Shown here one piece after another: positions 10,194 through 58,897 of a stretch of DNA of 64,000 nt. The notes below the pieces were generated by a model. It had not been told where the DNA came from. It saw nothing but the letters and a program-made list of their open reading frames with translations, and searched no databases. The number at the start of each line of letters is the position of its first letter. Positions within the stretch are counted from its first letter, which is position 1. Origin of the DNA: an uncultured Rhodospirillales bacterium (GTDB lineage: Bacteria; Pseudomonadota; Alphaproteobacteria; Azospirillales; Azospirillaceae); assembly GCA_903856295.1 (NCBI GenBank), contig CAIOBP010000097.1, positions 540 to 64,539 on the forward strand, written 5' to 3'. Both the position numbers and the translations under genes were made by a program.

Positions 10194-12017
10194 CTATTCT
10201 CCCACCGCCGCCCCTTCGCGCCGGGGGTCGGCGCCACCGGCCAAGTGGCCCTCGCCCAGCTGGATGCCGGTCAGGCCGCTGGTCATCTCGGTCAAGGAAA
10301 TGGTGTGACCGAGAGCCTCGAGGGCCGGTTTGAGCGCGGCCAGCACCGTTCCCTGCTCCAGCTCGGTGGCGCCGTTGCGGTTGGCCACGTGGGGCAGGTT
10401 GATCGCGGTCTGGACATCCAGGCCCCAGTCGAGCACCCCGACCAGCGTCTCGGCGACATAATCGATGATCCGCGGGCCGCCGGGGGAGCCGAGCGCCAGC
10501 ACCGGCTTGTTGGCCTCGTCGAGCACGATGGTCGGCGACATCGCCGAGCGCGGCCGTTTGCCCGGCTCGGCGCGGTTGGCCACCGGACGGCCGTTGATCT
10601 CGGGACGGAGCGAAAAGTCTGTCAACTCATTGTTGAGTAGAAAACCATCGACCATCAACCTTGAGCCGAAAGCATCCTCGATCGAGGTGGTGGCCGACAC
10701 GATGTTTCCGGCCTTGTCGACCACCACGAAATGGCTGGTCGAGGGGTATTCGTAGGACTCGCCCGGCGGTGCGGCGCGGGCATCGCGCCAGGGCGGATTG
10801 CCGGCCCGCACCGGCGCCGGCAGCGCGTGGTCGCGATCGATCAATTGCGCCCGCACCAGCAGATAGAGCGGGTCCGCCAACCCGGCGGCCGGCACCGGGG
10901 TCAGTTCGGGGTCGGCGAGGTAGGCGTCGCGGTCGGCATAGGTCAGCTTGCTCGCCTCGGCCAACAAATGCACGGCGGACAGGGACAAAGGCTTGATGTG
11001 TTCGACATCGAAATGGCTGAGCAGCCCGAGTATTTCGGCGACGCTGGCGCCACCGGCCGGCGGTGGCGGACCGCACACCAGGAAGGTGCGATAGGGCGCA
11101 CAGGCCGGTTCGCGCGGCAGGGCGGCATAGCTTTTGAGGTCGTCCTCGGTCATGGCGCCGTGGCTGGCGCCGGAGCCGTTGACCTTGGCCGCGATCTCCT
11201 TGGCGATCGGTCCGGTATAAAAAGCATCGGCGCCGCCTGCGGCGATTTTCCGCAGCGTCTCGGCGAAGGCCGGGTTCTTGAGCTTGGTTCCGGCGGCGCG
11301 CGGACTGCCGTCGGCATTGAGGAAATAGGCCCGCGCGGTGGGATCGCGGGCCAGCCGCTCGCGGTCATGGGCGATCTCCATGGCCAGACGCGGCGAAATC
11401 TCGAAGCCCTGCTCGGCGAGATCGATGGCCGGTTGGAACAGCTTGGCCCAGGGCAGCTTGCCCGCCCGCTGATGCGCGGCCTGCCACAGCCGCAGCGCGC
11501 CCGGCACCCCGACCGAGCGGCCGCCGATCACCGCGTCGTAGAAGGCCAGTGGCTGACCGGCGCCATCGAGGAACAGGTCGGGGCGGGTGGCGGCCGGCGC
11601 GGTTTCCCGGCCGTCGAAGGCGTAGAGTTCGCCGGCGGCGCGGTCATAGCCGATCAGGAAGGCGCCGCCGCCGATGCCCGAGGATTGCGGCTCGACCAGA
11701 TTGAGCACCATCTGAACCGTCACCGCCGCGTCGACGGCGCTGCCGCCCTCGCGGATGATCTGGGCGCCGGCCCGGGCCGCGACCGGGCTGGCCGCCACCA
11801 CCATGAACGATTTGGCATCGGCCGCCGCCCGAACCTCGGCCCGTGCGCTCCCGGCGGTCAGTAAGATCGCCACTGCCAAGGCAAGGGTTCCAAGGGCCCC
11901 CGGCCTTTGGCGGGTCCAGGGCAGCGCCCTGGCCTGGCCTTCGGCGACCAAGGGGCTTTGCCCCTGGCCCCCCCTGGAGCCGGCGGCCCCAGACCCCGGT
12001 AGATAGAGTTTAGCCAT
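10194..12017 (-). CDS. ggt: gamma-glutamyltransferase
   Basis: GGT motifs GGSAVDAAV, SSGIGGGAF, autoprocessing site PSTSHFVVVDKAGNIVSATTSIEDAFGS, SPGGPRII. ATG 12017 is the first Met after flhB. The true start may lie near 11870 because residues 5-45 are encoded by the REP-like element. Confidence 0.85.
   Translation of the reverse strand: MAKLYLPGSGAAGSRGGQGQSPLVAEGQARALPWTRQRPGALGTLALAVAILLTAGSARAEVRAAADAKSFMVVAASPVAARAGAQIIREGGSAVDAAVTVQMVLNLVEPQSSGIGGGAFLIGYDRAAGELYAFDGRETAPAATRPDLFLDGAGQPLAFYDAVIGGRSVGVPGALRLWQAAHQRAGKLPWAKLFQPAIDLAEQGFEISPRLAMEIAHDRERLARDPTARAYFLNADGSPRAAGTKLKNPAFAETLRKIAAGGADAFYTGPIAKEIAAKVNGSGASHGAMTEDDLKSYAALPREPACAPYRTFLVCGPPPPAGGASVAEILGLLSHFDVEHIKPLSLSAVHLLAEASKLTYADRDAYLADPELTPVPAAGLADPLYLLVRAQLIDRDHALPAPVRAGNPPWRDARAAPPGESYEYPSTSHFVVVDKAGNIVSATTSIEDAFGSRLMVDGFLLNNELTDFSLRPEINGRPVANRAEPGKRPRSAMSPTIVLDEANKPVLALGSPGGPRIIDYVAETLVGVLDWGLDVQTAINLPHVANRNGATELEQGTVLAALKPALEALGHTISLTEMTSGLTGIQLGEGHLAGGADPRREGAAVGE
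11881..12000. repeat. REP-like multi-hairpin element, copy B (inverted relative to copy A)
   Basis: Its reverse complement aligns along its whole length with 3111..3229, with a few substitutions and 1-nt indels. Confidence 0.75.
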
Positions 12018-13089
12018 TGAGCTTGCGCCCCTTGAGTTTGTAAACGAAGCTGATGACCTCGGCGACCGCGCGGTATTGTTCGGCGGGAATTTCCTGGTCG
12101 ATGTCGACGGTGTCGTAAAGCGCCCGCGCCAGCGGCGGATTCTGCACGATGGGAATATCGTGCTCCTCGGCGACTTTGCGAATGGTGGCGGCGATGAAAT
12201 CGGCACCCTTGGCCACCACCACCGGCGCCCGGCCGCTGGCGGCATCGTATTTCATGGCCACGGCGAAATGGGTCGGGTTGGTGACCACGACGTCGGCCTG
12301 GGGCACCGCCGCCATCATGCGCTGCCGGGCCTTTTGCACGCGCATCGCCCGGATCTTGCTCTTGACCAGCGGATCGCCTTCGGTCTGCTTGTATTCGTCC
12401 TTCACCTCCTGCTTGGTCATGCGCATCTTCTTGGCGAAGGTGAAGCGCTGATAGGCGAAGTCGGCGGCGGTGATGATCAGCACCACCATCACGATCCAGA
12501 CCATCATTCTGTAGGAGGTCGAGCGAACCTCCCAGAGCATCGACGAAAAATCCATGCCGATGAAATGCTCGAACCCCATGACCACCGGTTTGAGCACCAG
12601 AAAGACCACGAATCCGATCGCGAACAGCTTGAGAAGGTTCTTGCCCATGTCCAGCGCCTGCTGGCTGAGCTTGAACATCCGTTGCAGACCGGCGATCGGA
12701 TTGAGCTTGTTGAAGTCGATCTTCAGGCTGGCCCAGGTGAACTTGAAACCGATCTGCAAGACGGTCGACAGGATGCCCAGCACCATCAGCAGCGCCAGCG
12801 GCAAGCCGGTATAATAGATCACGTCGAGCAGAGCCCGCCCGACCATCAGGCGAATCGCCTCGGCATCGGTGGGAAATTGATAGGTTTCGGTGAGCAGCCG
12901 CGCCAGCTCGTCCTTGATGTGGCCGACGATCGGCGGCGCGATCCAGGCGACGATGATCAGGATGCCGATCATCGCCATCAGGTTGTTGACCTCGCGGCTG
13001 ATCGCGAACTGGCCTTCTTCGTGGGCCTTGTCGAGCTTGCGACTGCTGGCTTCTTCTGTTTTTGATGATTCGTCCTCATCTTCCGCCAT
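12010..13089 (-). CDS. flhB: flagellar biosynthesis protein FlhB
   Basis: 359 aa. N-terminal MAEDEDESSKTEEASSRKLDKAHEEGQFAISREV and the autocleavage motif NPTHFAVA. Confidence 0.9.
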   Translation of the reverse strand: MAEDEDESSKTEEASSRKLDKAHEEGQFAISREVNNLMAMIGILIIVAWIAPPIVGHIKDELARLLTETYQFPTDAEAIRLMVGRALLDVIYYTGLPLALLMVLGILSTVLQIGFKFTWASLKIDFNKLNPIAGLQRMFKLSQQALDMGKNLLKLFAIGFVVFLVLKPVVMGFEHFIGMDFSSMLWEVRSTSYRMMVWIVMVVLIITAADFAYQRFTFAKKMRMTKQEVKDEYKQTEGDPLVKSKIRAMRVQKARQRMMAAVPQADVVVTNPTHFAVAMKYDAASGRAPVVVAKGADFIAATIRKVAEEHDIPIVQNPPLARALYDTVDIDQEIPAEQYRAVAEVISFVYKLKGRKLNG

Positions 13090-22672: not shown

Positions 22673-23566
22673 TCAGTGTGTGCCGACGCGATCGGCGATC
22701 AGCGTCAGGAATAGTGCGAACAGATACAGCAGGGAAAAGCGGAACATATGCCGGGCAGCGCGGTCGCTGTCGTCGAACCAGACCCGAACCGCGGCAACCA
22801 GGAACCACGCCCCCAGCCCGAGGGCGACGGCAAGGTAAACCAGCCCGCTCAGACCGATGCTGTAGGGCACGACCGACAGGGGCAGCAGCAGCACCGTGTA
22901 GATGATCATCTGGCGCTTGGTTTCCCGCGCGCCCGCGACCACGGGCAGCATCGGCACCCCGGCCCGCTGATAGTCGTCATTGCAAAACAGCGCCAGCGCC
23001 CAGAAGTGCGGCGGCGTCCACATGAAAATCAGCATGAACAGCACGACTGAGGCCAGCGAGACATCGCCAGTCACCGCCGCCCAGCCGATCATCGGCGGAA
23101 ACGCCCCCGAGGCGCCGCCGATGACGATGTTGTAGGGCGTGCGACGCTTCAGCCAGATGGTATAGACGAAGACATAAAACGCCGAGGCCAGAAACAGCAG
23201 CCCGGCCGCGACGAAGTTGGTGGCAAGCCCCATGACCATGACCGCGCCCAGGGTCAGGATGACGCCAAAACCGAGGGCGTCGCCGGGCGCCATCTTGCCC
23301 GCCGGCAGCGGCCGCGTCCGCGTCCGCCGCATCACCTCGTCGATATCGCGGTCATACCACATATTGATGGCGCCGGCGGCGCCGGCGGCGATCGCGATGC
23401 ACAGGACGGCGGTCGCGGCCAGGACCGGATGCAGGTGTCCGGGGGCGAGGCACAGCCCGGAAAAGCCGGAGAACACCACCAGCAGCATGACGCGCGGCTT
23501 CAGCAGCGCGACAAAATCTCCGATATCGGTCCCAATGCTCATCTTCTGAATGGTGGTATCGGTCAT
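22673..23566 (-). CDS. ctaB: heme O synthase (protoheme IX farnesyltransferase)
   Basis: UbiA-fold protein with ALLKPRVMLLVVFS, NMWYDRDIDEVMRRTRTRPLPAG, PPHFWALA. Confidence 0.9.
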   Translation of the reverse strand: MTDTTIQKMSIGTDIGDFVALLKPRVMLLVVFSGFSGLCLAPGHLHPVLAATAVLCIAIAAGAAGAINMWYDRDIDEVMRRTRTRPLPAGKMAPGDALGFGVILTLGAVMVMGLATNFVAAGLLFLASAFYVFVYTIWLKRRTPYNIVIGGASGAFPPMIGWAAVTGDVSLASVVLFMLIFMWTPPHFWALALFCNDDYQRAGVPMLPVVAGARETKRQMIIYTVLLLPLSVVPYSIGLSGLVYLAVALGLGAWFLVAAVRVWFDDSDRAARHMFRFSLLYLFALFLTLIADRVGTH

Positions 23567-23651: not shown

Positions 23652-25205
23652 TCATGAGCGAGCATCCGCCCGCTCGCCCCAATAATCATCCCCGACTCTT
23701 GAGCCCTTTATCAGAGTGTAGAGTGCGATGCCACAGAAAATCATCCCGGAGGCGAATCCAGTATAAGCGCCAATCGAGGAAATGAAGTTCAAACCGGCAA
23801 AGCTGTCGGGATAATCGGGCGTATGGCGGGGCATGCCGTCCAGCCCCAAGACGTATTGAGGGATCATGGTCAGGTTGACACCGACGAACATCGTCCAGAA
23901 TTGAATCTTGCCCCAGAGTTCGGGATATTGCCGACCGGACATCGCGCCGATCCAATAATACCAGCCGCCGAGCGCCGCGAAAACCGCGCCAAGGCTCAAA
24001 ACCAAATGGAAATGGGCGACGACGAAATAGGTGGCGTGAACCGAGACGTCCGGGGAGCCGCTCCTCATGATCGCGCCGGCCGCGCCGCCGAAAATAAAGA
24101 TCACCATGAACCCGATGGCGTAGAGCATCGGGGTTTTGAGGGCCGGCGCGCGGCGCCACATGGTCGCGATCCAAGACAAGAGGATGATGGCGGTGGGAAT
24201 CGAGATGATCAGGATCGCGATGCCGAAGTAGGAATCGGTCTTGAAGCTCATGCCGGACGTATACATCTGCTGCGCCCAGACCACGAAGCCGATCAGGCCG
24301 ATCGCGCACATGGCGTAGACCATGCCCAGGTACCCGACAACCGGCCTTCTGGCAAAGGTCGCGATAATATGACTGACGATGCCGAAAGACGGCACGATCA
24401 TGATGTAGGCCTCGGGGTGACCGAAGAACCAGAGCACGCGCTGAAACAGCAGCGGATCGCCGCCACTCCCGGACTGGAAGAGCGCGCCGCCGGGGGTGCC
24501 GCCCATGACCAGCAGAGTGATGGCGCCGGCCAGCACCGGAACGGTCAGCACCAGCAAAAACGCGGTCACCAGCACCGCCCAAACGAACAGGGGCAGCTTA
24601 TGAAAGGTCATGCCCGGCGCGCGCATGTTGAAAATGGTGGCGATGAAGTTGATCGCCCCGGTCACCAGCGAGGTGCCGGCGAGCAGCAGCGCCAAAATCG
24701 CCAGATCGAGCGAAAGACCGGGCGCGCGCGCCGTGCCGGGCAGCGGCAGCCCCTCCGTCCGCCCCTCGCCGGTGTTCATGCCGACCAAGGTCGAGCCGAG
24801 CAGCAGCGCCAGCGAGGGAATCATCAGCCAGAAGCCGAGCATGTTCAGCCGCGGAAAGGCCATGCCGGAGGCGCCGATCATGGTCGGCACGAGCCAGTTG
24901 CCGAAGCCGCCGATCAGGGCCGGCATGACCATGAAGAACACCATGATCAGACCATGGGCGGTCATTACCAGGTTCCAAGTCTGCCCATCGGGAAACAGCT
25001 GCAGACCGGGCGCCTGCAATTCAAAGCGCATCAGCACGGAAAACAGCGCGCCGACGATGCCGGAGACGACGGACAGGCACAAATACAGTGTCCCGATATC
25101 CGTGTGATGGGTCGAGCACAGCCGGCGACGGAACGACCCTGAGCTGCGACTGTGATGATCGCGGCCAGACGGCGATGCCTCAGCTCCGGGAAATTGATCG
25201 CTCAT
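23652..25205 (-). CDS. A-family heme-copper oxidase subunit I homolog lacking the helix-VII CuB histidines
   Basis: 517 aa with CoxI motifs STHHTDIGTLY, TAHGLIMVFFMVMPALIGGFGNW, WFFGHPEAYIMIVPSFGIVSHIIATF, VVAHFHLVLS. WAQQMYT replaces WAHHMYT (CAG CAG at 24267..24272). Confidence 0.9.
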   Translation of the reverse strand: MSDQFPGAEASPSGRDHHSRSSGSFRRRLCSTHHTDIGTLYLCLSVVSGIVGALFSVLMRFELQAPGLQLFPDGQTWNLVMTAHGLIMVFFMVMPALIGGFGNWLVPTMIGASGMAFPRLNMLGFWLMIPSLALLLGSTLVGMNTGEGRTEGLPLPGTARAPGLSLDLAILALLLAGTSLVTGAINFIATIFNMRAPGMTFHKLPLFVWAVLVTAFLLVLTVPVLAGAITLLVMGGTPGGALFQSGSGGDPLLFQRVLWFFGHPEAYIMIVPSFGIVSHIIATFARRPVVGYLGMVYAMCAIGLIGFVVWAQQMYTSGMSFKTDSYFGIAILIISIPTAIILLSWIATMWRRAPALKTPMLYAIGFMVIFIFGGAAGAIMRSGSPDVSVHATYFVVAHFHLVLSLGAVFAALGGWYYWIGAMSGRQYPELWGKIQFWTMFVGVNLTMIPQYVLGLDGMPRHTPDYPDSFAGLNFISSIGAYTGFASGMIFCGIALYTLIKGSRVGDDYWGERADARS

Positions 25206-25250: not shown

Positions 25251-25817
25251 CTATTTCTTGCCGATGACGTCGGTGATCTGCCGCCGCACCGCCGGATTGT
25301 CCCAATCGGTGCCGCCGAGCAGGCGGGCGACCTCGCGGCCGTCGCGCCCGATCAGCACCGAAGTCGGCAGCCCGCGGACGCCGAGAACACTGTTCGTGGC
25401 CCCGGTGGGGTCGAGATAGGGCGCCAGCGCTTTCACCCTCTGTTTTTCCAGGAAGGGCAGCACCACCGCCGCGCCGCCGCGATCCTCGGCCAGGGCCAGC
25501 ACCTGAAAGCCCGGGCCGCCCAACTCGGATTGCAACCGGTCGAGGGAGGGCATTTCCTTGACGCACGGCGCGCACCACGTCGCCCACAGGTTCAGCAACA
25601 ACACCTTGCCGGCGAAATCGGCGAGCCGTAGCGGCGCGCCCGCGCCGTCGGTGAACGCGAAATCGGCGACCGGGCGCTCCGCCGCCTGGAAGTGTCCAGC
25701 CGGTGCCGATTCCGGTCCGCCGGGCGGGTGCAGCATCAGCGCGGCGGACAGCGCCGCCATGCCGAAGCCGGTGACCGCGCCGGCCAGGGCCAGTTTGCGG
25801 ATCGTCTCCGGGCTCAT
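25251..25817 (-). CDS. TlpA/ResA-like periplasmic thiol:disulfide oxidoreductase
   Basis: TM anchor plus thioredoxin fold with WATWCAPC. Three in-frame ATGs (25877, 25847, 25817) are created by the 30-bp repeat; the innermost is listed. Confidence 0.8.
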   Translation of the reverse strand: MSPETIRKLALAGAVTGFGMAALSAALMLHPPGGPESAPAGHFQAAERPVADFAFTDGAGAPLRLADFAGKVLLLNLWATWCAPCVKEMPSLDRLQSELGGPGFQVLALAEDRGGAAVVLPFLEKQRVKALAPYLDPTGATNSVLGVRGLPTSVLIGRDGREVARLLGGTDWDNPAVRRQITDVIGKK

Positions 25818-25900
25818 GCCGCCGCCTGCTCGCCGCTCCGGGCTCATGCCGCCGCCTGTTCGCCGCTCCGGGCTCATGCCGCCGCCTGCTCGCCGCGCGA
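25811..25900. repeat. 30-bp tandem repeat x3 spanning the ABC-exporter stop / tlpA start junction
   Basis: ggctcatgccgccgcctgctcgccgctccg, ggctcatgccgccgcctgttcgccgctccg, and ggctcatgccgccgcctgctcgccgcgcga. Confidence 0.9.
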
Positions 25901-27730
25901 ATCGAGCCCCGGATCGAGATTAAACTGCAAGGCCGCCAACCGGGCATAGAGCCCGCCCTGGCGGCTGAGATCGGCGTGGGTGCCGCAGGCCACCACCGCG
26001 CCACCCTCCATCACCACGATGCGGTCGGCATTCATCACGGTGGCGAGGCGGTGGGCGATGATCAGGGTGGTGCGGCCTTTCATCAGTTCGTCCAGCGCCT
26101 CCTGGACCGCGCGCTCGCTTTCGGCGTCGAGGGCGCTGGTCGCCTCGTCGAGCAGCAGCACCGGCGGATTGCGCAGAATCGCGCGGGCGATGGCCACCCG
26201 CTGGCGCTGCCCGCCCGAAAGCTGCACGCCCTTTTCGCCGAGGAAGGTGTCGAAGCCCTGGGGCAGCTTTTCCAGGAACTCCAGGGCGTGGGCGGCCTCG
26301 GCGGCGGCGCGCACCTCGGCGTCGCTGGCCTCGGGCCGGCCGTAGCGGATGTTCTCCCAGGCGTTGCCCGAGAAGATCACCGGCGCCTGGGGCACCAATC
26401 CGAGCCGGCGGCGCACCGCGGCGGGATCGGCGGCCCGGACATCGACGCCATCGAGCAGCACCGCACCCGACTGAACATCGTAGAAGCGCAGCAGCAACTG
26501 GAACACCGTCGACTTGCCGGCGCCGCTCGGCCCGACCAGCGCCACGGTTTCGCCCGCCGCCACCTCGAGGGAGAAGCCGCTCAGCGCCGGATGCTCGGGC
26601 CGGGCGGGGTAATGGAAGCCGACGCTGTCGAAGGTCACCGTGCTGCGCGGCGTCTCGGGCAATGGCTGGGGATTGGCCGGCGCCACGATGTCGGGCTCGG
26701 TGGTCAGCAGCTCGAACAACCGCTCGGTGGCCCCGGCGGCGCGCTGCAAATCGCCGTAAACCTCGGAAATCGAGCCCGAGGAGCCGGCGACCACCGCCGC
26801 GTAGATCACGAAGGCCGACAGCTGCCCGGCGGTCAGGGTGCCGGCGATGACGTCGTGGCCGCCGATCCACAGCACGACGCCGATGGCGCCGAACACCAGC
26901 ACGATCACCGTGGTCGCGGTCACCGAGCGGATGCGCACCCGGCTCATGGCGGTGTTCAGGGCGTCTTCGACCCGGTCGACAAAGCCGCGATGGTCGATGC
27001 TCTCGTGATTGAAGGCCTGGACGATGCGAATCGCCGACAGCGTTTCCTCCAGGTGCGAGCCGACGTCGCCGACCCGCTCCTGGCTGGCCCGCGACAGCCG
27101 CCGCTCCATGCGCCCGAGCATCACGATCGGCGCCACCACCAGCGGCAGAGCCAGAAACACCAGCCCGGTCAGCTTGGCGCTGGTGATCAGCAGCATGGTC
27201 AGGCCGCCGATCAGCATCAGGCCGTTGCGCAGGGCGATGGAGACCGAGGAGCCGATCACCACCTGCAACAGCGTGGTGTCGGTGGTCAGCACCGAGAGAA
27301 TGTCGCCGACCCGCTTGTGTTCGAACCAGGCCGGGCTGAGCCGCAGCACGTGGGCATGGGCGGCCCGGCGCAAATCCGCCACCACCCGCTCGCCGACCCA
27401 GCTGACCAGAAAGAAGCGGCCAAAGGCGGCGGCGCCGAGCAGCACCGTCACCACCAGCATCACCAGTAAGACCTGATCGAGCATGCCGGGATCGCCGGCC
27501 CCGAAGCCCTTGTCGATCATCACCCGCAAGCCCTGGCCGAGACCGAGGGTGGTCGCCGCCGAGACGGTCAACGCCAGCATCGCTCCGGCGATCTGCCAGC
27601 GATAGGGCGCGAGATAGGGCAGCAGGCGCCGCAACGGCTTGAGGTCGCGCCGCCGGACCGCGTCGGCGGCGGCGGCCGCCTCGGCCGGCTTCAGGGTGCT
27701 TTCGACATAGTTCGATTTGCTGTGAAACAT
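25874..27730 (-). CDS. fused TMD-NBD ABC exporter (MsbA/ABCB-like)
   Basis: 618 aa with six N-terminal TM segments, Walker A GPSGAGKST, signature LSGGQRQR, Walker B LLLDEATSALD. Confidence 0.85.
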   Translation of the reverse strand: MFHSKSNYVESTLKPAEAAAAADAVRRRDLKPLRRLLPYLAPYRWQIAGAMLALTVSAATTLGLGQGLRVMIDKGFGAGDPGMLDQVLLVMLVVTVLLGAAAFGRFFLVSWVGERVVADLRRAAHAHVLRLSPAWFEHKRVGDILSVLTTDTTLLQVVIGSSVSIALRNGLMLIGGLTMLLITSAKLTGLVFLALPLVVAPIVMLGRMERRLSRASQERVGDVGSHLEETLSAIRIVQAFNHESIDHRGFVDRVEDALNTAMSRVRIRSVTATTVIVLVFGAIGVVLWIGGHDVIAGTLTAGQLSAFVIYAAVVAGSSGSISEVYGDLQRAAGATERLFELLTTEPDIVAPANPQPLPETPRSTVTFDSVGFHYPARPEHPALSGFSLEVAAGETVALVGPSGAGKSTVFQLLLRFYDVQSGAVLLDGVDVRAADPAAVRRRLGLVPQAPVIFSGNAWENIRYGRPEASDAEVRAAAEAAHALEFLEKLPQGFDTFLGEKGVQLSGGQRQRVAIARAILRNPPVLLLDEATSALDAESERAVQEALDELMKGRTTLIIAHRLATVMNADRIVVMEGGAVVACGTHADLSRQGGLYARLAALQFNLDPGLDSRGEQAAA

Positions 27731-27836: not shown

Positions 27837-28439
27837 CTAGCGTTTCAAGACCTGCCGAATGCCCTCGGCCATCTGCTCCGGGGTGGTCTCGTGGCCGAAC
27901 AGCTTGAGCACGGTGCCGCGATCACCGGTCAGAAAGGTGAAGGCCGAGTGATCCATGGTGTACCCGTCGGGGGTGGAGCCCGGAACCTTGCGGTAATACA
28001 CCCGGAAGCTCTTGGCGGCGGCGGCGACCTGCTCGGGCGTGCCGGTCAGGCCGATCAGGCGCGGGCTGAACTGGGCGACATAGGGGGCCAGCCCCTCCTT
28101 GGAATCGCGCTCGGGATCGATGGTGACGAACAGCTGCTGCACCCGGCCGGCATCCTGGCCCAGCAGCTCGAGGGCGCTGGCGCCGGCCTGGAGATTGGTC
28201 GGGCAGACGTCGGGGCAGAAGCGGTAACCGAAGCTGATCAGCAACAGCTTGCCCGGCCAGCTGTTTTCGGTCACCGCGCGGCCGTCGTGGGCGGTCAGCG
28301 CGAACGGGCCGCCGAGTTCGAATTGGGGCGCCGAGCTTTGCCCGGAGTCCCGTTGCAATCCCTGCTTGAGCCACAGCGCCCCGGCGCTGAGCGCCACCAC
28401 GGCGATCAGGAACAAGCCATTGCGGCGCAGCCAGCTCAT
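27837..28439 (-). CDS. SCO1/SenC copper chaperone
   Basis: Start at MSWLRRNGLFLIAVVAL (ATG 28439). CxxxC motif FGYRFCPDVCP and the distal His in YTMDHSAFTFL. Confidence 0.85.
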   Translation of the reverse strand: MSWLRRNGLFLIAVVALSAGALWLKQGLQRDSGQSSAPQFELGGPFALTAHDGRAVTENSWPGKLLLISFGYRFCPDVCPTNLQAGASALELLGQDAGRVQQLFVTIDPERDSKEGLAPYVAQFSPRLIGLTGTPEQVAAAAKSFRVYYRKVPGSTPDGYTMDHSAFTFLTGDRGTVLKLFGHETTPEQMAEGIRQVLKR

Positions 28440-28465: not shown

Positions 28466-29620
28466 CTACCGCCGTCGCAGATCGTGCAACGCCAACAGGA
28501 TCAACGACAGCAGCACGAAAGCGCCCGCCTGATGAGTCACCGCCGTCACCACCGGAACAGACAGCACAAGTGTGGTAATTCCAAGGCTGATCTGAACCAC
28601 CACCCAGACGCCGAGCACGAAGCCGAGGCGGCGGGTCGCCGGCGCCAGCGTCTCGAGCGAGGCGACGCGCCAGCCGTAATACAGCGTTACCAGACCGGTG
28701 GTGATGGCCAGCCAGCGGTGGCAGAACTGTACCGCCGGGGCATTCTCGAAGAGGTTGAGCCATCTCGGCTCGAGCGCCCACGCCTCGCTGGCGATGACCT
28801 CGCCGTTCATCAAGGGGAAGGTGTTGTAGATCAGCCCGGCATGCAGCCCCGCGACCATCGCGCCCCAGATCAGCGTCGTCACCGCCAGCAGCAGCGCCAG
28901 CCGGAGATGCATGCGCAGGGACCAGCCCTTGTTGCGGGCGACCAGCGCCGAGCGCGGCTCGGGGCGCAGCAGGGTCAGCGCCTGCCACAGGATGAAGCTG
29001 AAGATCAGCATCGCCATGGTTAGATGGGTGGCGAGCCGGTAATGGCTGACCGATGGCCGGTCGACCAGCCCGCTAGCCACCATCAGCCAGCCGACCACGC
29101 CCTGAAGGGCGCCGAGCAGGAAGATGTTGACGAGATTGGTCATCAGCCCGGGACGGATTTTCTTGGTCGCCCAGAAATAGAGGAAGGGCAGCAGAAATAC
29201 GAAGCCGATCAGGTGCGCGAACAGGCGATGGAACCACTCCCACCAGAAGATTTCCTTGAAGGCGTCAAGGGTCATGCCATGATTGACTTGTAGATACTCG
29301 GGCGTGAGCTGGTAAAGACCGAACACCCGCTGCCACTCGAGTTCGTTCAAGGGCGGCAGCACGCCGACCAGCGGCTTCCACTCGACCATCGAGAGGCCGG
29401 AATGGGTCAGCCGGGTGATGCCGCCGATGATCACGATGGAAAACACCATGGCCGCGCAGGCCAACAACCAGACACCGATCGCCTTGTCGGCGCCGGGGCC
29501 GGGGGGCGGCGCAGCCGGTTTGCTCGCGGCCGGCTTGCTCGCAGGCGGGGGGGCGGGCGCGGCGGTGGACTCGGGAGCCGGCACGGACTCGGAATCGGTG
29601 GTCATGGAGCGTTCCGTCAC
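28466..29620 (-). CDS. ctaA: heme A synthase (COX15/CtaA)
   Basis: IIGGITRLTHSGLSMVEWKP, EFKEIFWWEWFHR-like segment, 8 TM, second His-containing half. Confidence 0.85.
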   Translation of the reverse strand: MTERSMTTDSESVPAPESTAAPAPPPASKPAASKPAAPPPGPGADKAIGVWLLACAAMVFSIVIIGGITRLTHSGLSMVEWKPLVGVLPPLNELEWQRVFGLYQLTPEYLQVNHGMTLDAFKEIFWWEWFHRLFAHLIGFVFLLPFLYFWATKKIRPGLMTNLVNIFLLGALQGVVGWLMVASGLVDRPSVSHYRLATHLTMAMLIFSFILWQALTLLRPEPRSALVARNKGWSLRMHLRLALLLAVTTLIWGAMVAGLHAGLIYNTFPLMNGEVIASEAWALEPRWLNLFENAPAVQFCHRWLAITTGLVTLYYGWRVASLETLAPATRRLGFVLGVWVVVQISLGITTLVLSVPVVTAVTHQAGAFVLLSLILLALHDLRRR

Positions 29621-29639: not shown

Positions 29640-30131
29640 TCACGGCGCGGCGATCACGGTCACCCAGTGGCGCATCTTGTTGTGTTCGAGACCGCAATAT
29701 TCGCTGCACACCATCGAGACCTTGCCGGGTTCGGCGGTGGTCACCGGCATGATCGCCGCCCGGCCGGGGACCAGCAGCGCCTCTTTGCCGCCGATGACCA
29801 CGCCGTGCAGACTATCCTCGCTGGCCACGTGGAAACGATAGCTCTGATGGGGCTGAAGTTCCAGCACCGGCAGGAAGCGCCAGCGGCCGGCGGCGACATA
29901 GACATCGCCCGGCGGCGGCCGCACCACCGGCACCCCCTCCTCGTCGCCGACCTTGTAGCGGGCGGTTTGCGCCGCGAGTTTGGCCTCGAACTCGGCGGCG
30001 GCGATGGCGTAGGTCTGAATCTCGGTCGCCCGCGCCAGCCCGCGCCACGCCGGCTGGGCCAGAAACAGCAGCGCCAGCAGCGCGCCGACGCCGAGCAGCA
30101 GCTTGCGTTCGCCGGGAGAATGCTCACACAT
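29640..30131 (-). CDS. small single-TM CuA (cupredoxin) oxidase subunit II-like protein
   Basis: 163 aa with one N-terminal TM. Complete CuA ligand set: H (SLHGV), then C-S-E-Y-C-G-L-E-H-N-K-M. Confidence 0.75.
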   Translation of the reverse strand: MCEHSPGERKLLLGVGALLALLFLAQPAWRGLARATEIQTYAIAAAEFEAKLAAQTARYKVGDEEGVPVVRPPPGDVYVAAGRWRFLPVLELQPHQSYRFHVASEDSLHGVVIGGKEALLVPGRAAIMPVTTAEPGKVSMVCSEYCGLEHNKMRHWVTVIAAP

Positions 30132-31491
30132 GGTCGGTCTCCGTGCGCGCCAGCAGACGGTTGATCATCAGCCAGATGAACAGGACGCCGCCCAGCACCG
30201 CCAGCGCGCCGCCCAGGCCGTAAACGCCCATCGCGACCTTCTTGAGCGTGCTGTCGAGCCCCTGAGCGGCGGCGCCCATGGTCTTGCGCGGCACCCCGGC
30301 GGCGCCGGCCACGAACATGCCGATCGAGAACACCATCTGGCCCCAGCCATAGGAGTGGAACAGCCCGGTCACCAGCCGGCGCGATTTGACCGCCCGCCCG
30401 AGCGCCGGCAGCACCACCGCGATGAACAGCCCCATGAAGGCGAGGTTCACGCCGCCGATCGCCGAATGATAGTGCGAGGGCGTGCGGGCGTCCGAGGCGC
30501 CGAGAAAGAAGCCCATGGCGCCGCCGACCAGAAACACCGCCAGCGAAATCCCAAGCGCCAGTTCGGCCGCGCCCCAGCTGAGTCCGGCCCGCCGCCGCCA
30601 GAGCAGGGCGACCAGCCCGGCCCCGACCACCACCGGCGGCACGGTCAGCCCGTACCACAGCAGATCGGTGAAGGCAAGGCGGTGCTGGAGGCTCAGAATG
30701 TCGTACATCCCGTAAAAGGCGAAGCCCGGCAAAACGAACACCACCATCGAGCCCAGCACCAGTTTGAACAGCGACGGCGGCACCGGCTCCTCGCCGAACG
30801 CGGTCTGGGCCAGGATCACCCAGGCGGTGAGCATCAGCGCCGTGTTGACGAATTGCAGGACATGGCCGCCGCCCCAGAACAGGCGCTCGTTGAAGGTCTG
30901 GAGATCGAGCCCGGCCGGCAGCACCGCCCAGGCGATGGCGATCAGCAGCAGCGCGATCAGGTACAGCACCCCCGAGACCGCGACGCCGAAGCCGACGCTG
31001 CCCCGGATCGCCGCCGGATTGGCCAGCAGCCGCACCACCGGCAGCGCCACGCCGCCGCCGACCAGCGCCAGCCCGAGATAGTAGAGCGGATGCACCACGA
31101 TCGGCACGTAATTGTTGAGGCAGGGCTCGCCCTCATTGAGAAAGGCGGGAATGGCCAGCAGCACCGTGCCCAGCGCTCCGGCCCAAACCCCGGCCGGCCC
31201 CAGCGCCGCGAGCCGGACGGCCCCGGCGCCGGCCAGCGGCAGCACCGCCAGCACGCCCAGCACCGCCAGGAACCAGACCACGAACGACAGAATGACGTGG
31301 GTCACCAGGGCGGTGTAGAAGAAGCTCTGCCACGACCAGGGCAGCAGCACCTGAGTCGCGGGCACCCGCGACAGCACCAGCAGCAAAGCCAGCGCCCCGG
31401 CCACCGCCAGCGACCCCGCCGCGATCCACGACCAGCCCGCGACCTCGCGGCGCAAGGCGGCCGGCAGCGTCATTCCCGGCGCTTCAGTCAT
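30124..31491 (-). CDS. divergent heme-copper oxidase superfamily subunit I-like protein (455 aa)
   Basis: About 12 TM. By-eye motif placement: helix II VTHVILSF, helix VI LFWGGGHVLQF, helix X PSHYHSAIGG. No HH pair anywhere. 8-nt overlap with the subunit II gene. Confidence 0.55.
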   Translation of the reverse strand: MTEAPGMTLPAALRREVAGWSWIAAGSLAVAGALALLLVLSRVPATQVLLPWSWQSFFYTALVTHVILSFVVWFLAVLGVLAVLPLAGAGAVRLAALGPAGVWAGALGTVLLAIPAFLNEGEPCLNNYVPIVVHPLYYLGLALVGGGVALPVVRLLANPAAIRGSVGFGVAVSGVLYLIALLLIAIAWAVLPAGLDLQTFNERLFWGGGHVLQFVNTALMLTAWVILAQTAFGEEPVPPSLFKLVLGSMVVFVLPGFAFYGMYDILSLQHRLAFTDLLWYGLTVPPVVVGAGLVALLWRRRAGLSWGAAELALGISLAVFLVGGAMGFFLGASDARTPSHYHSAIGGVNLAFMGLFIAVVLPALGRAVKSRRLVTGLFHSYGWGQMVFSIGMFVAGAAGVPRKTMGAAAQGLDSTLKKVAMGVYGLGGALAVLGGVLFIWLMINRLLARTETDHV

Positions 31492-31627
31492 GGCCCCGGC
31501 CCACCGACACGATCACTCGCGCGCACAATCCCCGCACGGCGGCATCCTCCCTTTTCGGAACGCTGCCACCATAACCAAGATTGATCGCAGTTCAAGCTGT
31601 AACAAGGAACAGCCTGGGGCCGGGGAC

Positions 31628-31945
31628 CTACCGCCCCGACTTGGTCCGCTCATGCTCCATGTAAGCGCGGAGCACGGCGTTGATCCTGGTCTGGTAAGGC
31701 TCGCCGGAACTGCGGAACCACTCCAGCACGTCGCGGTCGATGCGGATGCTGATCGGCTCCTTGCCCGGCGGCATGACGACGCGGGCCGTCTTGAACCAGT
31801 TGTCGTCCAAGATCGGCGCGGCGTCGGGATCGTCCCGGATCGCCGCCTCGATGTCTTCGTCAGTGAGGGCGTCCACTCGGGCCCAGTCCGTTTGTCCCCG
31901 GCCGGCGGTCTCGAGCGTAACTCTCGTGATAGCCTCTTTGCTCAT
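31628..31945 (-). CDS. brnA: BrnA-family antitoxin
   Basis: 105 aa: DWARVDALTDEDIEAAIRDDPDAAPI ... ISIRIDRDVLEWFRSSGEPYQTRINAVLRAYM (RHH-type C-terminus). Confidence 0.75.
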   Translation of the reverse strand: MSKEAITRVTLETAGRGQTDWARVDALTDEDIEAAIRDDPDAAPILDDNWFKTARVVMPPGKEPISIRIDRDVLEWFRSSGEPYQTRINAVLRAYMEHERTKSGR

Positions 31946-32180
31946 GCTTGCGTGCCTTTCGTGCCGAGATCAGCCGCCGAGTCTCACCGCGCCATGTGTA
32001 AACGACGGTTATTATACTGCCATCGACGATTCCTTGGGCGATGAACCGCATTTCGCCAAAATCACGAACGGCGGGCTGTTCCACAACGTGACGCGCCCAA
32101 ATCTGAACAGCATCCCGGAAATCGATCCCGTGTTTCTCAAGATTGCTCAGTCGCTTGCCCTCATCCCACTCAAACTCCAC
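31860..32180 (-). CDS. brnT: BrnT-family (DUF497) toxin
   Basis: Tail of ORF 31860..34139. GTG 32180 is preceded by AGGAGG. VEFEWDEGKRLSNLEKHGIDFRDA ... VVYTWRGETRRLISARKARKHEQRGY. About 25 aa tail overlaps brnA. Confidence 0.7.
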   Translation of the reverse strand: MEFEWDEGKRLSNLEKHGIDFRDAVQIWARHVVEQPAVRDFGEMRFIAQGIVDGSIITVVYTWRGETRRLISARKARKHEQRGYHESYARDRRPGTNGLGPSGRPH

Positions 32181-32423
32181 CCCGAAGCCTCCTCTTGGAT
32201 CGAGCCTTCGATCCGCTTGCCGGTATCGCGGGGTCTCGGCCAAGCATATGCACCTGTATATACACTGCGCGGCCACCACGGCAAGCCCCCTCCAAAAAAT
32301 CATACGATCGCTTGCGATTTGGCGCCACAGGCATCCGGAATGCAGAGCGCAACCCCACCATTGGCCAATCGATAAAAATCCTGCTATCTCTCCCGCTTCA
32401 CAGTTCCAGGCGCATCCCTCCCC

Positions 32424-57307: not shown

Positions 57308-58897
57308 ATGTTGAAGACGACCTACGCGCGGCGGGGCATGGTGGTGGCTCCCCACCATCTGGCGGCTCAGGCGGGGCTCGCGGTGCTGCGCGAGGGTGGC
57401 GACGCCATCGAGGCGATGGTCGCGACCTCGGCGGCCTGCGCGGTGGTGGCGCCGCACCTCAACGGGTTGGGCGGCGATGCCTGCTGGCTGATCTACGAGC
57501 CGGGCAAGCCGCCCATGGCCATCGAGGCCACCGGGAGCGCCGGGCGGGCGGTCTCCCCCGACCTCTATCGCGGCCAGCGGATGAGCGAGATTCCGCCGCG
57601 CGGGCCGCTGGCCGCCAATACCGTTGCCGGCCTGGTCTCGGGCTGGTCGTCGGCGCTGGCCATCAGCCGCGGCTGGGGCGGACGCCTGCCGTTGGCCCGG
57701 TTGCTCGAGGAGGCGGTCGGCCATGCCCGCGACGGCGTGCCGGTGAGCGCCGGGCAGGCGGCGCTGCTCGCCCAGGACGCCAGAGAGCTGCTGCCCCAGC
57801 CCGGTTTCGGCCGCATTCACCTGCCCGGCGGTCAGCCGCCCCGGCCCGGAACGCTGATGATTCAGACCGCGCTGGCCAAGACGCTGGACCGTTTGGCCGC
57901 GGCGGGCTGTGATGATTTTTACCGGGGTGAACTCGCGATTTCGCTCGCGGCCGGACTCTCGGCATCGGGCAGCCCGCTTACCCGCGAGGATCTGGCCGAC
58001 CATTGGGCGCGCTTGGTCGAGCCGTTGTCGGTCAAGCTGGCCGATGCCATGCTCTATAACCTGCCACCGCCGAGTCAAGGGCTGGCGGCCCTGATGATTC
58101 CCGGCATCTTCGATCGTCTCAAGGTTGGCGAGGCCGACAGCGCCCAGCATATTCACGCGTTGGTCGAGGCGTCGAAGCACGCCTGCCGGGTGCGCGACCT
58201 CTATGTCACCGATCCGTTTTACATGAGCGTCGACGCCAAGGATTTCGTGCTGCCCGAAGTGCTCGACGAAGTCGCGGCGGTGCTCGATTCCGAACAGGCC
58301 CAGCCCTGGTCGGATGCCGGCGGCCATGGCGAGTGTGCGTGGCTGGGGGTGATCGACGGCGCCGGCCGCGTCGTCAGTTGCATGCAAAGTCTGCATTGGG
58401 GCTTTGGGTCCGGCGTCACGCTGGGGCGCACCGGTGTGGTCTGGAACAATTGCGGCGTCGGCTTCAGCCTTCAGCCGGGCGCGGTCAATCACCTGATCAG
58501 CGGCCGCAAACCCTGTCACACCCTGTGCCCGGCGCTGGCGGTGTTCGACGACGGCCGGGCGCTGGGCTTCGGCGGCATGAGCGGCGAAAACCAGCCCCAG
58601 AGCCAGGCCGCTTTCTTCAGCCGCTACGCACGGCTCGGTCAGGGGTTGCAGGCGGCCGTCAGCGCGCCGCGCTGGTTCCTCGGCCGGCGTCATGGCGTCG
58701 GCGCCGCGTCCCTCAAGATCGAAAACCGTCTCGCCCCCGAGGTGCTCGAAATCCTGCGCCAAAACGGTCACCAGCTGGAACTGGTCGAACCGTTCTCAGA
58801 CCGCATGGGCCATGCCGGCGCCGTGCTCTACACCCCCGATACCGCCCTCGAAGGCGCCAGCGACCCCCGCTCGGACGGCGCCGTCGCCGCTTGGTGA
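57308..58897 (+). CDS. gamma-glutamyltransferase family protein with Cys at the nucleophile position
   Basis: GMVVAPHHLAAQAG, GLGGDACW, and ...GECAWLGVIDGAGRVVSCMQSLHWGFGSG aligning with TSHFVVVD... of the ggt gene in this window. Confidence 0.85.
   Translation: MLKTTYARRGMVVAPHHLAAQAGLAVLREGGDAIEAMVATSAACAVVAPHLNGLGGDACWLIYEPGKPPMAIEATGSAGRAVSPDLYRGQRMSEIPPRGPLAANTVAGLVSGWSSALAISRGWGGRLPLARLLEEAVGHARDGVPVSAGQAALLAQDARELLPQPGFGRIHLPGGQPPRPGTLMIQTALAKTLDRLAAAGCDDFYRGELAISLAAGLSASGSPLTREDLADHWARLVEPLSVKLADAMLYNLPPPSQGLAALMIPGIFDRLKVGEADSAQHIHALVEASKHACRVRDLYVTDPFYMSVDAKDFVLPEVLDEVAAVLDSEQAQPWSDAGGHGECAWLGVIDGAGRVVSCMQSLHWGFGSGVTLGRTGVVWNNCGVGFSLQPGAVNHLISGRKPCHTLCPALAVFDDGRALGFGGMSGENQPQSQAAFFSRYARLGQGLQAAVSAPRWFLGRRHGVGAASLKIENRLAPEVLEILRQNGHQLELVEPFSDRMGHAGAVLYTPDTALEGASDPRSDGAVAAW

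Follow-up and report, generated by a model that had tools for sequence, protein, structure and literature searches.

A heme-copper oxidase family related to eNOR and predicted to lack two of the three histidine ligands of the second active-site metal

The heme-copper oxidase (HCO) superfamily is taken to be marked by the three histidines of its binuclear centre, and a recent survey found the active-site histidines fully conserved across HCO families, with gNOR as the first exception (PMC11214002). gNOR is a proposed quinol nitric oxide (NO) reductase, derived from the B family, in which one active-site His is replaced by Asp and subunit II lacks CuA; eNOR is an experimentally verified NO reductase carrying a modified heme a, and in cNOR, qNOR and nNOR the metal FeB is held by three His plus Glu (PMC11214002). 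The present analysis concerns a gene, referred to as the target, within 64,000 nucleotides (nt) of DNA from an uncultured Rhodospirillales bacterium (GenBank assembly GCA_903856295.1, contig CAIOBP010000097.1, positions 540 to 64,539 of the forward strand); this whole stretch is the window, and positions are counted from its first letter. The target encodes a protein of 455 amino acids (aa) which, judged by alignment, lacks two of the three His of the second metal (CuB or FeB) as well as the Tyr of the oxidase cross-link, an absence that extends across its family.

A first-pass annotation of the window, made from the letters alone, had placed an open reading frame (ORF) of 455 aa at 30124..31491 and proposed it to be a subunit I of the HCO superfamily, to be checked by a PF00115 profile search and a predicted structure. 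The ORF is present, on the minus strand, with 12 predicted transmembrane (TM) helices, and both checks were carried out. The Pfam COX1 profile (PF00115) matches at 36.8 bits against a cut-off of 34.8, which is significant but marginal. The target alone gave no match as a query against PDB sequences or in an NCBIfam scan, its matches coming only from profiles and from the predicted fold; the profile of the target family has ba3 as its sole match in the PDB (E ~1e-7). From an alignment of 37 homologues, AlphaFold2 gave a model of 12 long helices, with helix VI spanning residues 197-232, and of high confidence (predicted local distance difference test, pLDDT, 90.1; predicted template modelling score, pTM, 0.91; residues 200-270 at 96-98, with F259/Y260 at 96-97). 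Among solved structures, the top Foldseek match to this model is subunit I of Thermus thermophilus ba3 (template modelling score 0.78), followed by aa3, bo3 and NO reductase subunit I, all at probability 1.00, so that the fold resembles ba3 most closely and the NO reductases less so. By predicted fold and profile, the target is thus a subunit I of the HCO superfamily, as proposed. The gene and the residues on which the argument turns are located as follows.

31491..30124, minus strand: target subunit I, ORF of 455 aa starting MTEAPGMTLP
31297..31299, minus strand: codon of H65, predicted helix II axial ligand of the low-spin heme, aligned with ba3 H72 and eNOR H69
30886..30888, minus strand: codon of E202, eight residues before H210 and near the periplasmic end of helix VI
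30853..30864, minus strand: H210-V-L-Q213, H210 aligned with ba3 H233 and the motif with eNOR GHSSQQ
30712..30717, minus strand: F259-Y260, at the canonical helix VII His-His positions, paired by hhalign with eNOR H280/H281
30682..30684, minus strand: codon of H270 (LQHR, residues 268-271), aligned with eNOR F292
30466..30474, minus strand: H340-Y341-H342 of helix X, the two His aligned with ba3 H384/H386 and eNOR H385/H387
30283..30288, minus strand: R402-K403, after helix XI, aligned with ba3 'PRRAY' and eNOR R448/R449

The target contains eight His (65, 134, 210, 270, 340, 342, 379 and 454) and no HH pair, in agreement with the first-pass annotation, whose quoted motifs VTHVILSF (H65), LFWGGGHVLQF (H210), SHYHS (H340/H342) and LQHR (H270) are all found. 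Conservation was counted in 142 family representatives and checked also in the 37 close homologues, and in both sets H65, H210, H340 and H342 are the only His columns that are effectively invariant. H65 is His in 140 representatives, the remaining two being gapped there, and H210 in all 142; in helix X the counts are 141 for H340, 140 for Y341 and 140 for H342, with the Tyr standing where oxidases carry Phe. The only further column with His in more than half of the representatives is H134 (78/142), and no column beyond the four reaches 60%. By alignment, H65 and H342 are the predicted bis-His ligands of a low-spin heme and H340 the predicted proximal ligand of a high-spin heme. Of the three His that would hold a second active-site metal, H210 of helix VI is the sole one left.

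The two missing ligands are those of helix VII. The hhalign alignment of the target family with eNOR is free of gaps from H210 on, through the pairing of H280/H281 with F259/Y260, and counting 49/50 residues on from the helix VI His, which in ba3 and eNOR leads to the helix VII pair, leads in the target to the same two residues; the target therefore keeps four of the six canonical His. Position 259 is hydrophobic throughout the family, and position 260 is Tyr in 66 representatives, His in 6 and another residue in 70 (Y/A/F/T and others overall), while the acidic residue of the eNOR motif HHxxx[E/D] is absent as well, the target having Y263. The first-pass annotation had counted five of the six, on the view that helix VII retains H270 as a ligand and has Gln in place of its other His. 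H270 was considered as a ligand and ruled out by conservation, register and helix position: it is His in only 37 of the 142, it lies some 10 residues beyond the ligand positions, and in the model it opens helix VIII instead of closing helix VII. Both helix VII His are thus gone in the alignments, and the corrected count makes the protein more unusual than it had seemed. The alignment of homologues that had been called for yielded the four invariant His, and no full ligand set at other positions was found in it. A single representative among the 142, P0131 (GCA_041442895.1, locus order DUF420, target, 154-aa gene), keeps HH at helix VII (APFHHLLHP), and five others have the single His at position 260, as would fit an origin from a normal eNOR-like ancestor.

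Beyond the four His, strong conservation (at least 85-99%) extends to R42, N127, Y128, P130, E202, W206, G209, Q213, W224, T275, S316, Y341, Q385, R402 and K403. Q213, at H+3, matches the first Gln of eNOR GHSSQQ and is present in 140/142, and E202 is Glu in 129. At H+4, the place of the cross-link Tyr, the target has F214, as had been read by eye; Phe is found there in 102 representatives and Tyr in only 7. R402 and K403 (140 and 141 of 142) align with the Arg-Arg pair after helix XI, which in oxidases holds the heme propionates.

Sequence and profile comparison identify the eNOR NO reductases, rather than ba3, as the closest characterised relatives of the target. BLASTP finds 27% identity (E = 5e-16) to subunit I of the eNOR of Magnetospirillum magnetotacticum MS-1, and hhalign of the family against 20 eNORs gives a probability of 99.7 and E = 6.4e-26 over 443 columns at 26% identity. 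With the family hidden Markov model (HMM), eNORs reach 98-122 bits, ba3 33 bits and A-type CoxI about 0, compared with 250-850 for its own members, and the gap between members and eNORs suggests a separate clade. The first-pass annotation had mentioned a link to NO reductase families, which is upheld in that eNOR is nearest. Shared with eNOR are the (S/T)R-x-P...LLP loop, the helix VI motif W-x-x-G-H-x-x-Q, a small CuA subunit II with a single TM helix and the association with heme A and heme O synthases; the eNOR and target genes also adjoin in several genomes. The eNOR protein is longer, however, at about 560 aa, and its motifs differ: among 120 eNORs, GH[SG]SQQ occurs in 120 and HHxxx[ED] in 114, against GHVLQF and FYGMY in the target. 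There, Phe stands in for the second Gln of GHSSQQ, the eNOR consensus residue K223 is replaced by Glu (E202), and the cytoplasmic-side polar residues of eNOR helix VI, Q235, H241 and Y246, correspond to F214, M220 and V225.

Comparison with other families leads further away. The ba3 oxidase (PDB 1EHK/3S8F) shares the two-subunit layout with a single-TM CuA subunit, and its heme ligands and Arg pair align, but its cross-link Tyr corresponds to F214 at H+4 (Q213 in the HMMER register) and H282/H283 have no counterpart in the target. gNOR is likewise a B-family-derived HCO with changed second-metal ligands; it has, however, lost one His and gained a carboxylate, whereas the target loses two with no conserved Asp or other replacement and keeps CuA intact. 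The exchange of a single His, which the first-pass annotation had noted for candidate NO reductases, is of this gNOR type and understates the change in the target, where two of the three second-metal ligands are lost. With cNOR, qNOR and nNOR the target shares the superfamily fold, the absence of the cross-link Tyr and, probably, a proton supply from the periplasmic side. It differs in lacking their three-His-plus-Glu set, as E202 lies at H-8 and not at H+4, and in the entry of electrons, which is by cytochrome c in those enzymes and would be by CuA in the target; the structural match is also more distant. The target shows the fold, the heme ligands and, in the clade of the window, the CuA subunit, and departs from the defining motifs of eNOR, the B family, gNOR and cNOR/qNOR/nNOR alike. 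In the literature searched, no published HCO family lacking two of the three second-metal ligands was found. On these alignments the family should be filed as a separate HCO family, sister to or derived from eNOR and outside all named families.

The target is followed by a gene for subunit II, the start of which lies inside the end of subunit I.

29640..30131, minus strand: subunit II, 163 aa, one N-terminal TM helix and a cupredoxin domain (PF00116 E = 2.7e-4; TIGR02866 E = 2.6e-7)
30124..30131, minus strand: 8-nt overlap ATGTGTGA of the two genes

The stop region of subunit I, ending in CATGTGTGA, thus overlaps the start of subunit II by 8 nt. Subunit II has a complete CuA set (H109, C142, C146, H150 and M153) and is 34% identical to eNOR subunit II (E = 3e-27). 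An overlapping single-TM subunit II with a complete CuA motif, in a B-family-like layout, had been described in the first-pass annotation, and both parts of that description were confirmed, the layout by the translationally coupled CuA subunit. Across related loci, the target is followed by a cupredoxin gene of 147-186 aa in 40/82, mostly with the same 8-nt overlap, and in all 40 the motif C-x3-C-x3-H-x2-M is intact.

The family is large and retained by selection. Of about 185,600 species genomes, 543 encode relatives with its signature peptides, most of them Rhodospirillales (Paramagnetospirillum, Phaeospirillum, Telmatospirillum, Caenispirillum, Terasakiella and many aquatic metagenome-assembled genomes), and an exhaustive profile search returned 1,567 clusters at 50% identity with E < 1e-3, 661 of them with E < 1e-30. 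Against its two nearest relatives the gene of the window is under purifying selection, the ratio of nonsynonymous to synonymous substitution rates (dN/dS) being 0.07-0.17 for the target and 0.16-0.38 for subunit II. A literature search conducted largely outside subscription journals returned no description of the family, of HCOs without CuB ligands or of COX1-like genes linked to DUF420 or CtaB, and nothing relevant on the Magnetospirillum accessions of the family. In Paramagnetospirillum magneticum AMB-1 the annotation splits the copy into ORFs of 348 and 123 aa (BAE51031.1, WP_148207395.1), which suggests a frameshift or a pseudogene in that strain.

Gene neighbourhoods were counted in about 80 related loci, with heme O synthase counted within 8 kb. 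Heme O synthase is present in 58-62 of these, usually directly downstream of the target, heme A synthase in 22-23 and genes of an A-type cox operon in about 25-31. Directly upstream of the target-family gene, 54-57 of 80 loci carry a DUF420/CtaM gene with four TM helices (for example L069:7387-7851, L076:2710-3144 and L043:7473-7895), which is absent from the window; CtaM is an assembly factor required for active aa3 oxidase and not for heme A synthesis (PMC8239418). The roughly 40 loci without a cupredoxin gene have the order DUF420, target, heme O synthase, divergent from coxB-coxA-ctaG-coxC. Eleven loci of the Magnetospirillum type show eNOR subunit II, eNOR subunit I, heme O synthase, SCO, a cytochrome b/Fe-S fusion and a 167-aa gene, followed by the target pair. 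The fusion protein, 524 aa in Paramagnetospirillum magnetotacticum MS-1 (L001:5797-7371), where it stands between the eNOR genes and the target pair, combines a cytochrome b N-terminal domain, a 4Fe-4S ferredoxin domain and an FlpD/MvhD-like domain, and is kept in 13 loci. The target pair of this strain consists of WP_041041049.1 and a 159-aa protein encoded downstream of it. The target itself is also found fused. In P0164 (748 aa) it is joined to heme O synthase within an eNOR operon (L088:419-4875) ordered eNOR subunit II, subunit I, a 48-aa piece, the fusion and an SCO-like gene, and in P0177 (761 aa), on the metagenomic contig L087:2-2287, it follows the N-terminal domain of cytochrome b. 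Directly downstream of the P0177 gene is nirS, for cytochrome cd1 nitrite reductase (L087:2396-3889), which occurs at this locus only among all those examined. A fusion of the target to TPR also occurs.

In the window, the target heads a tight cluster of eight genes on the minus strand, in the order target, CuA subunit II, CtaA, SCO1, ABC exporter, TlpA, CoxI paralog and heme O synthase, so that genes for cofactor synthesis and for CuA assembly lie together with it.

28466..29620, minus strand: heme A synthase, CtaA/COX15 (PF02628 E = 5e-104; NF045570 E = 3e-90)
27837..28418, minus strand: SCO1/SenC copper chaperone (PF02630 E = 5.8e-44, residues 226-359 of a long ORF), the true start probably being MSWLRRNG
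25874..27730, minus strand: MsbA-related fused ABC exporter (TIGR02204, 849 bits)
25251..25877, minus strand: TlpA-like periplasmic thiol:disulfide reductase (PF08534; NF047696 E = 2.4e-36)
23652..25205, minus strand: A-type CoxI paralog, 517 aa, with WAQQMY (PF00115, 420 bits)
22673..23566, minus strand: heme O synthase, CtaB/CyoE (PF01040; TIGR01473 338 bits, cut-off 210)

Besides the 8-nt overlap of target and subunit II, the cluster has a 19-nt gap to CtaA, a 4-nt overlap between exporter and TlpA and otherwise short gaps. The exporter is common only to the closest relatives (L005, L006). The CoxI paralog, which stands between TlpA and heme O synthase with neither CoxII nor CoxIII nearby, retains GHPEAY and both His of helix X, but the stretch that is WAHHM[YF] in oxidases reads WAQQMY. 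The QQ is not a sequencing error, since the identical protein is encoded on 9 contigs drawn from several samples. Among the best matches listed for it, helix VII HH is found in 119 of 120, the only QQ being its own entry, P0267, and the CoxI genes of the related loci have HH in 30/30. The first-pass annotation had seen the same replacement in target and paralog; the comparison does not hold, as the paralog carries QQ exactly at the HH positions, unlike the Q269-H270 of the target.

Taken together, these features are read, tentatively and with a probability put a little below even, as those of the large subunit of a two-subunit, CuA-fed membrane redox complex with two hemes, in which a mononuclear heme active site without CuB or FeB would act most likely on NO and/or O2, within a family sister to eNOR. 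Electrons would pass from a periplasmic donor to CuA, on to the low-spin heme and from there to the high-spin heme, which is probably of the a or o type because heme O synthase and, less often, heme A synthase are encoded near so many of the related genes. A redox role is proposed because the CuA subunit is intact in 40 loci, the P0177 protein is fused to cytochrome b and a cytochrome b/Fe-S protein lies beside the Magnetospirillum pairs. The distal pocket of the high-spin heme would be lined by His210 and Gln213, with Tyr260 added in the clade of the window, and with no second metal there the chemistry would take place at the mononuclear heme. NO-dioxygenating globins have a similar distal pocket. 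The substrate would be a small gas ligand, NO and/or O2 being favoured because eNOR is the nearest relative, eNOR genes are repeatedly adjacent and nirS lies beside one fused member; slow single-heme NO reduction, NO dioxygenation or peroxide reduction may serve as examples of the chemistry. Protons would probably be drawn from the periplasm, as the cytoplasmic-side polar residues of eNOR helix VI are hydrophobic here and E202 lies at the periplasmic end, and the enzyme would not be expected to pump.

Several points weigh against a catalytic mononuclear heme. Oxygen and NO reduction by known HCOs both use two metals and, to our knowledge, CuB-free oxidases, engineered or natural, are inactive. 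A dedicated CuA subunit is missing from about half of the family, where the order DUF420(CtaM), target, heme O synthase resembles an assembly operon. The link to nirS comes from a single locus, and no nitrogen-oxide genes are found in the 64-kb window. Furthermore, the arrangement of H210, Q213, Y260 and E202 about the heme comes from the alignment only, and a metal may be held by unconventional ligands.

The assembly-like gene order points to a different role, considered unlikely, in which the protein is a heme-handling scaffold or assembly factor: heme O made by the neighbouring synthase would be received, kept while or after it is turned into heme A, and handed on to oxidase or eNOR subunits. 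A protein of this kind would be expected to lose its CuB site. In most loci the target is immediately followed by heme O synthase, to which it is fused in P0164, DUF420/CtaM, the family of a known assembly factor (PMC8239418), lies directly upstream in the majority, and another HCO operon is nearly always nearby, be it eNOR in Magnetospirillum and L088 or the divergent coxB-coxA-ctaG-coxC of the clade without cupredoxin. In the window, CtaA, SCO1, TlpA and CtaB share the cluster and strand of the target. A parallel may be drawn with nitrogenase assembly, where NifEN, a scaffold paralog of NifDK, keeps the fold and cofactor pockets without the catalytic ligands and is encoded beside cofactor-synthesis genes; these proteins are unrelated to the target, however, and the parallel is an analogy only, drawn from gene neighbourhood. 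Ordinary oxidase operons carry ctaB and ctaA too, so the neighbourhood alone does not discriminate between a scaffold and an enzyme. What speaks for electron transfer over storage is the coupled, intact CuA subunit of 40 loci together with the cytochrome b fusion, and the low-spin bis-His pair, the Arg/Lys pair and H210/Q213, each kept in at least 140 of 142 representatives, go beyond the apparent need of a carrier.

If the protein is an enzyme, it might still be a binuclear NO reductase, with FeB or another metal held by H210 and non-His ligands such as Y260, E202, Q213 or a residue of subunit II. The gNOR precedent of a His exchanged for a carboxylate (PMC11214002), the strong conservation of E202 and Q213, that of Y260 in the clade of the window, and the HH of P0131 and single His of five others, by which the site appears evolutionarily near a metal site, all lend this some weight. 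It is nevertheless thought improbable: positions 259 and 260 vary (A, F, T, L and others) with no conserved substitute ligand set, E202, two helical turns to the periplasmic side of H210 and Lys in eNOR, is unlikely to reach the site, and one His with a Gln amide makes a poor redox-metal site. The five-His model of the first-pass annotation, with H270 as a surviving helix VII ligand and Gln in place of its partner, draws on a loose likeness of LQHR to a degenerate HH; with H270 variable, aligned to F292 and at the start of helix VIII, and with the 49/50 spacing from H210 ending at F259/Y260, hardly any weight is left to it. Equally little is given to a decaying, functionless paralog. The loss of catalytic ligands, the neighbouring CoxI without HH and the AMB-1 copy in two fragments would suit decay, but it is strongly disfavoured by the low dN/dS and by the many columns that alignment finds invariant over hundreds of divergent sequences, and the operon structure with its 8-nt overlap is conserved too.

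We put at about an even chance the broader proposition that this is the first natural HCO clade with a lone-heme active site, free of CuB and FeB and selected in hundreds of species, be it for new chemistry at a CuA-fed His/Gln(/Tyr) pocket or as a NifEN-like heme A scaffold for eNOR and aa3. With two heme sites, a CuA subunit and heme A/O genes all retained and two of the three ligands dropped, a family this large and under selection amounts to a natural experiment on the oxidase scaffold without a second metal. If catalytic, it would broaden the chemistry of the HCO fold and may add an uncounted NO or O2 enzyme to Rhodospirillales, among them magnetotactic and aquatic denitrifiers; if a scaffold, it would supply a component so far lacking from accounts of how heme A is delivered in oxidase assembly. 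Public annotations of family members read 'cbb3-type cytochrome c oxidase subunit I', 'B(O/a)3-type chain I', 'putative permease' or 'hypothetical protein'. The first of these, an automatic name, is wrong and would inflate oxidase and NO reductase gene counts in metagenome surveys.

Upstream of the target, an imperfect palindrome, TTGAACTGCGATCAA, lies at ~31578-31592 (minus strand), about 110 nt from the start codon. It was considered as an FNR/NnrR-like site and rejected, its spacing being one base longer than that of the FNR/DNR box and the element being absent upstream of 20 related genes. The gene directly upstream of the target encodes a BrnA antitoxin (31628-31945, minus strand), preceded by a reading frame with FEWDEGKRLSNLEKHGIDF (~31940-32200, minus strand), presumably its toxin partner by its resemblance to BrnT. 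The rest of the window is housekeeping, and two gamma-glutamyltranspeptidase genes occur in it, at 10194-12245 (minus strand) and 57308-58897 (plus strand).

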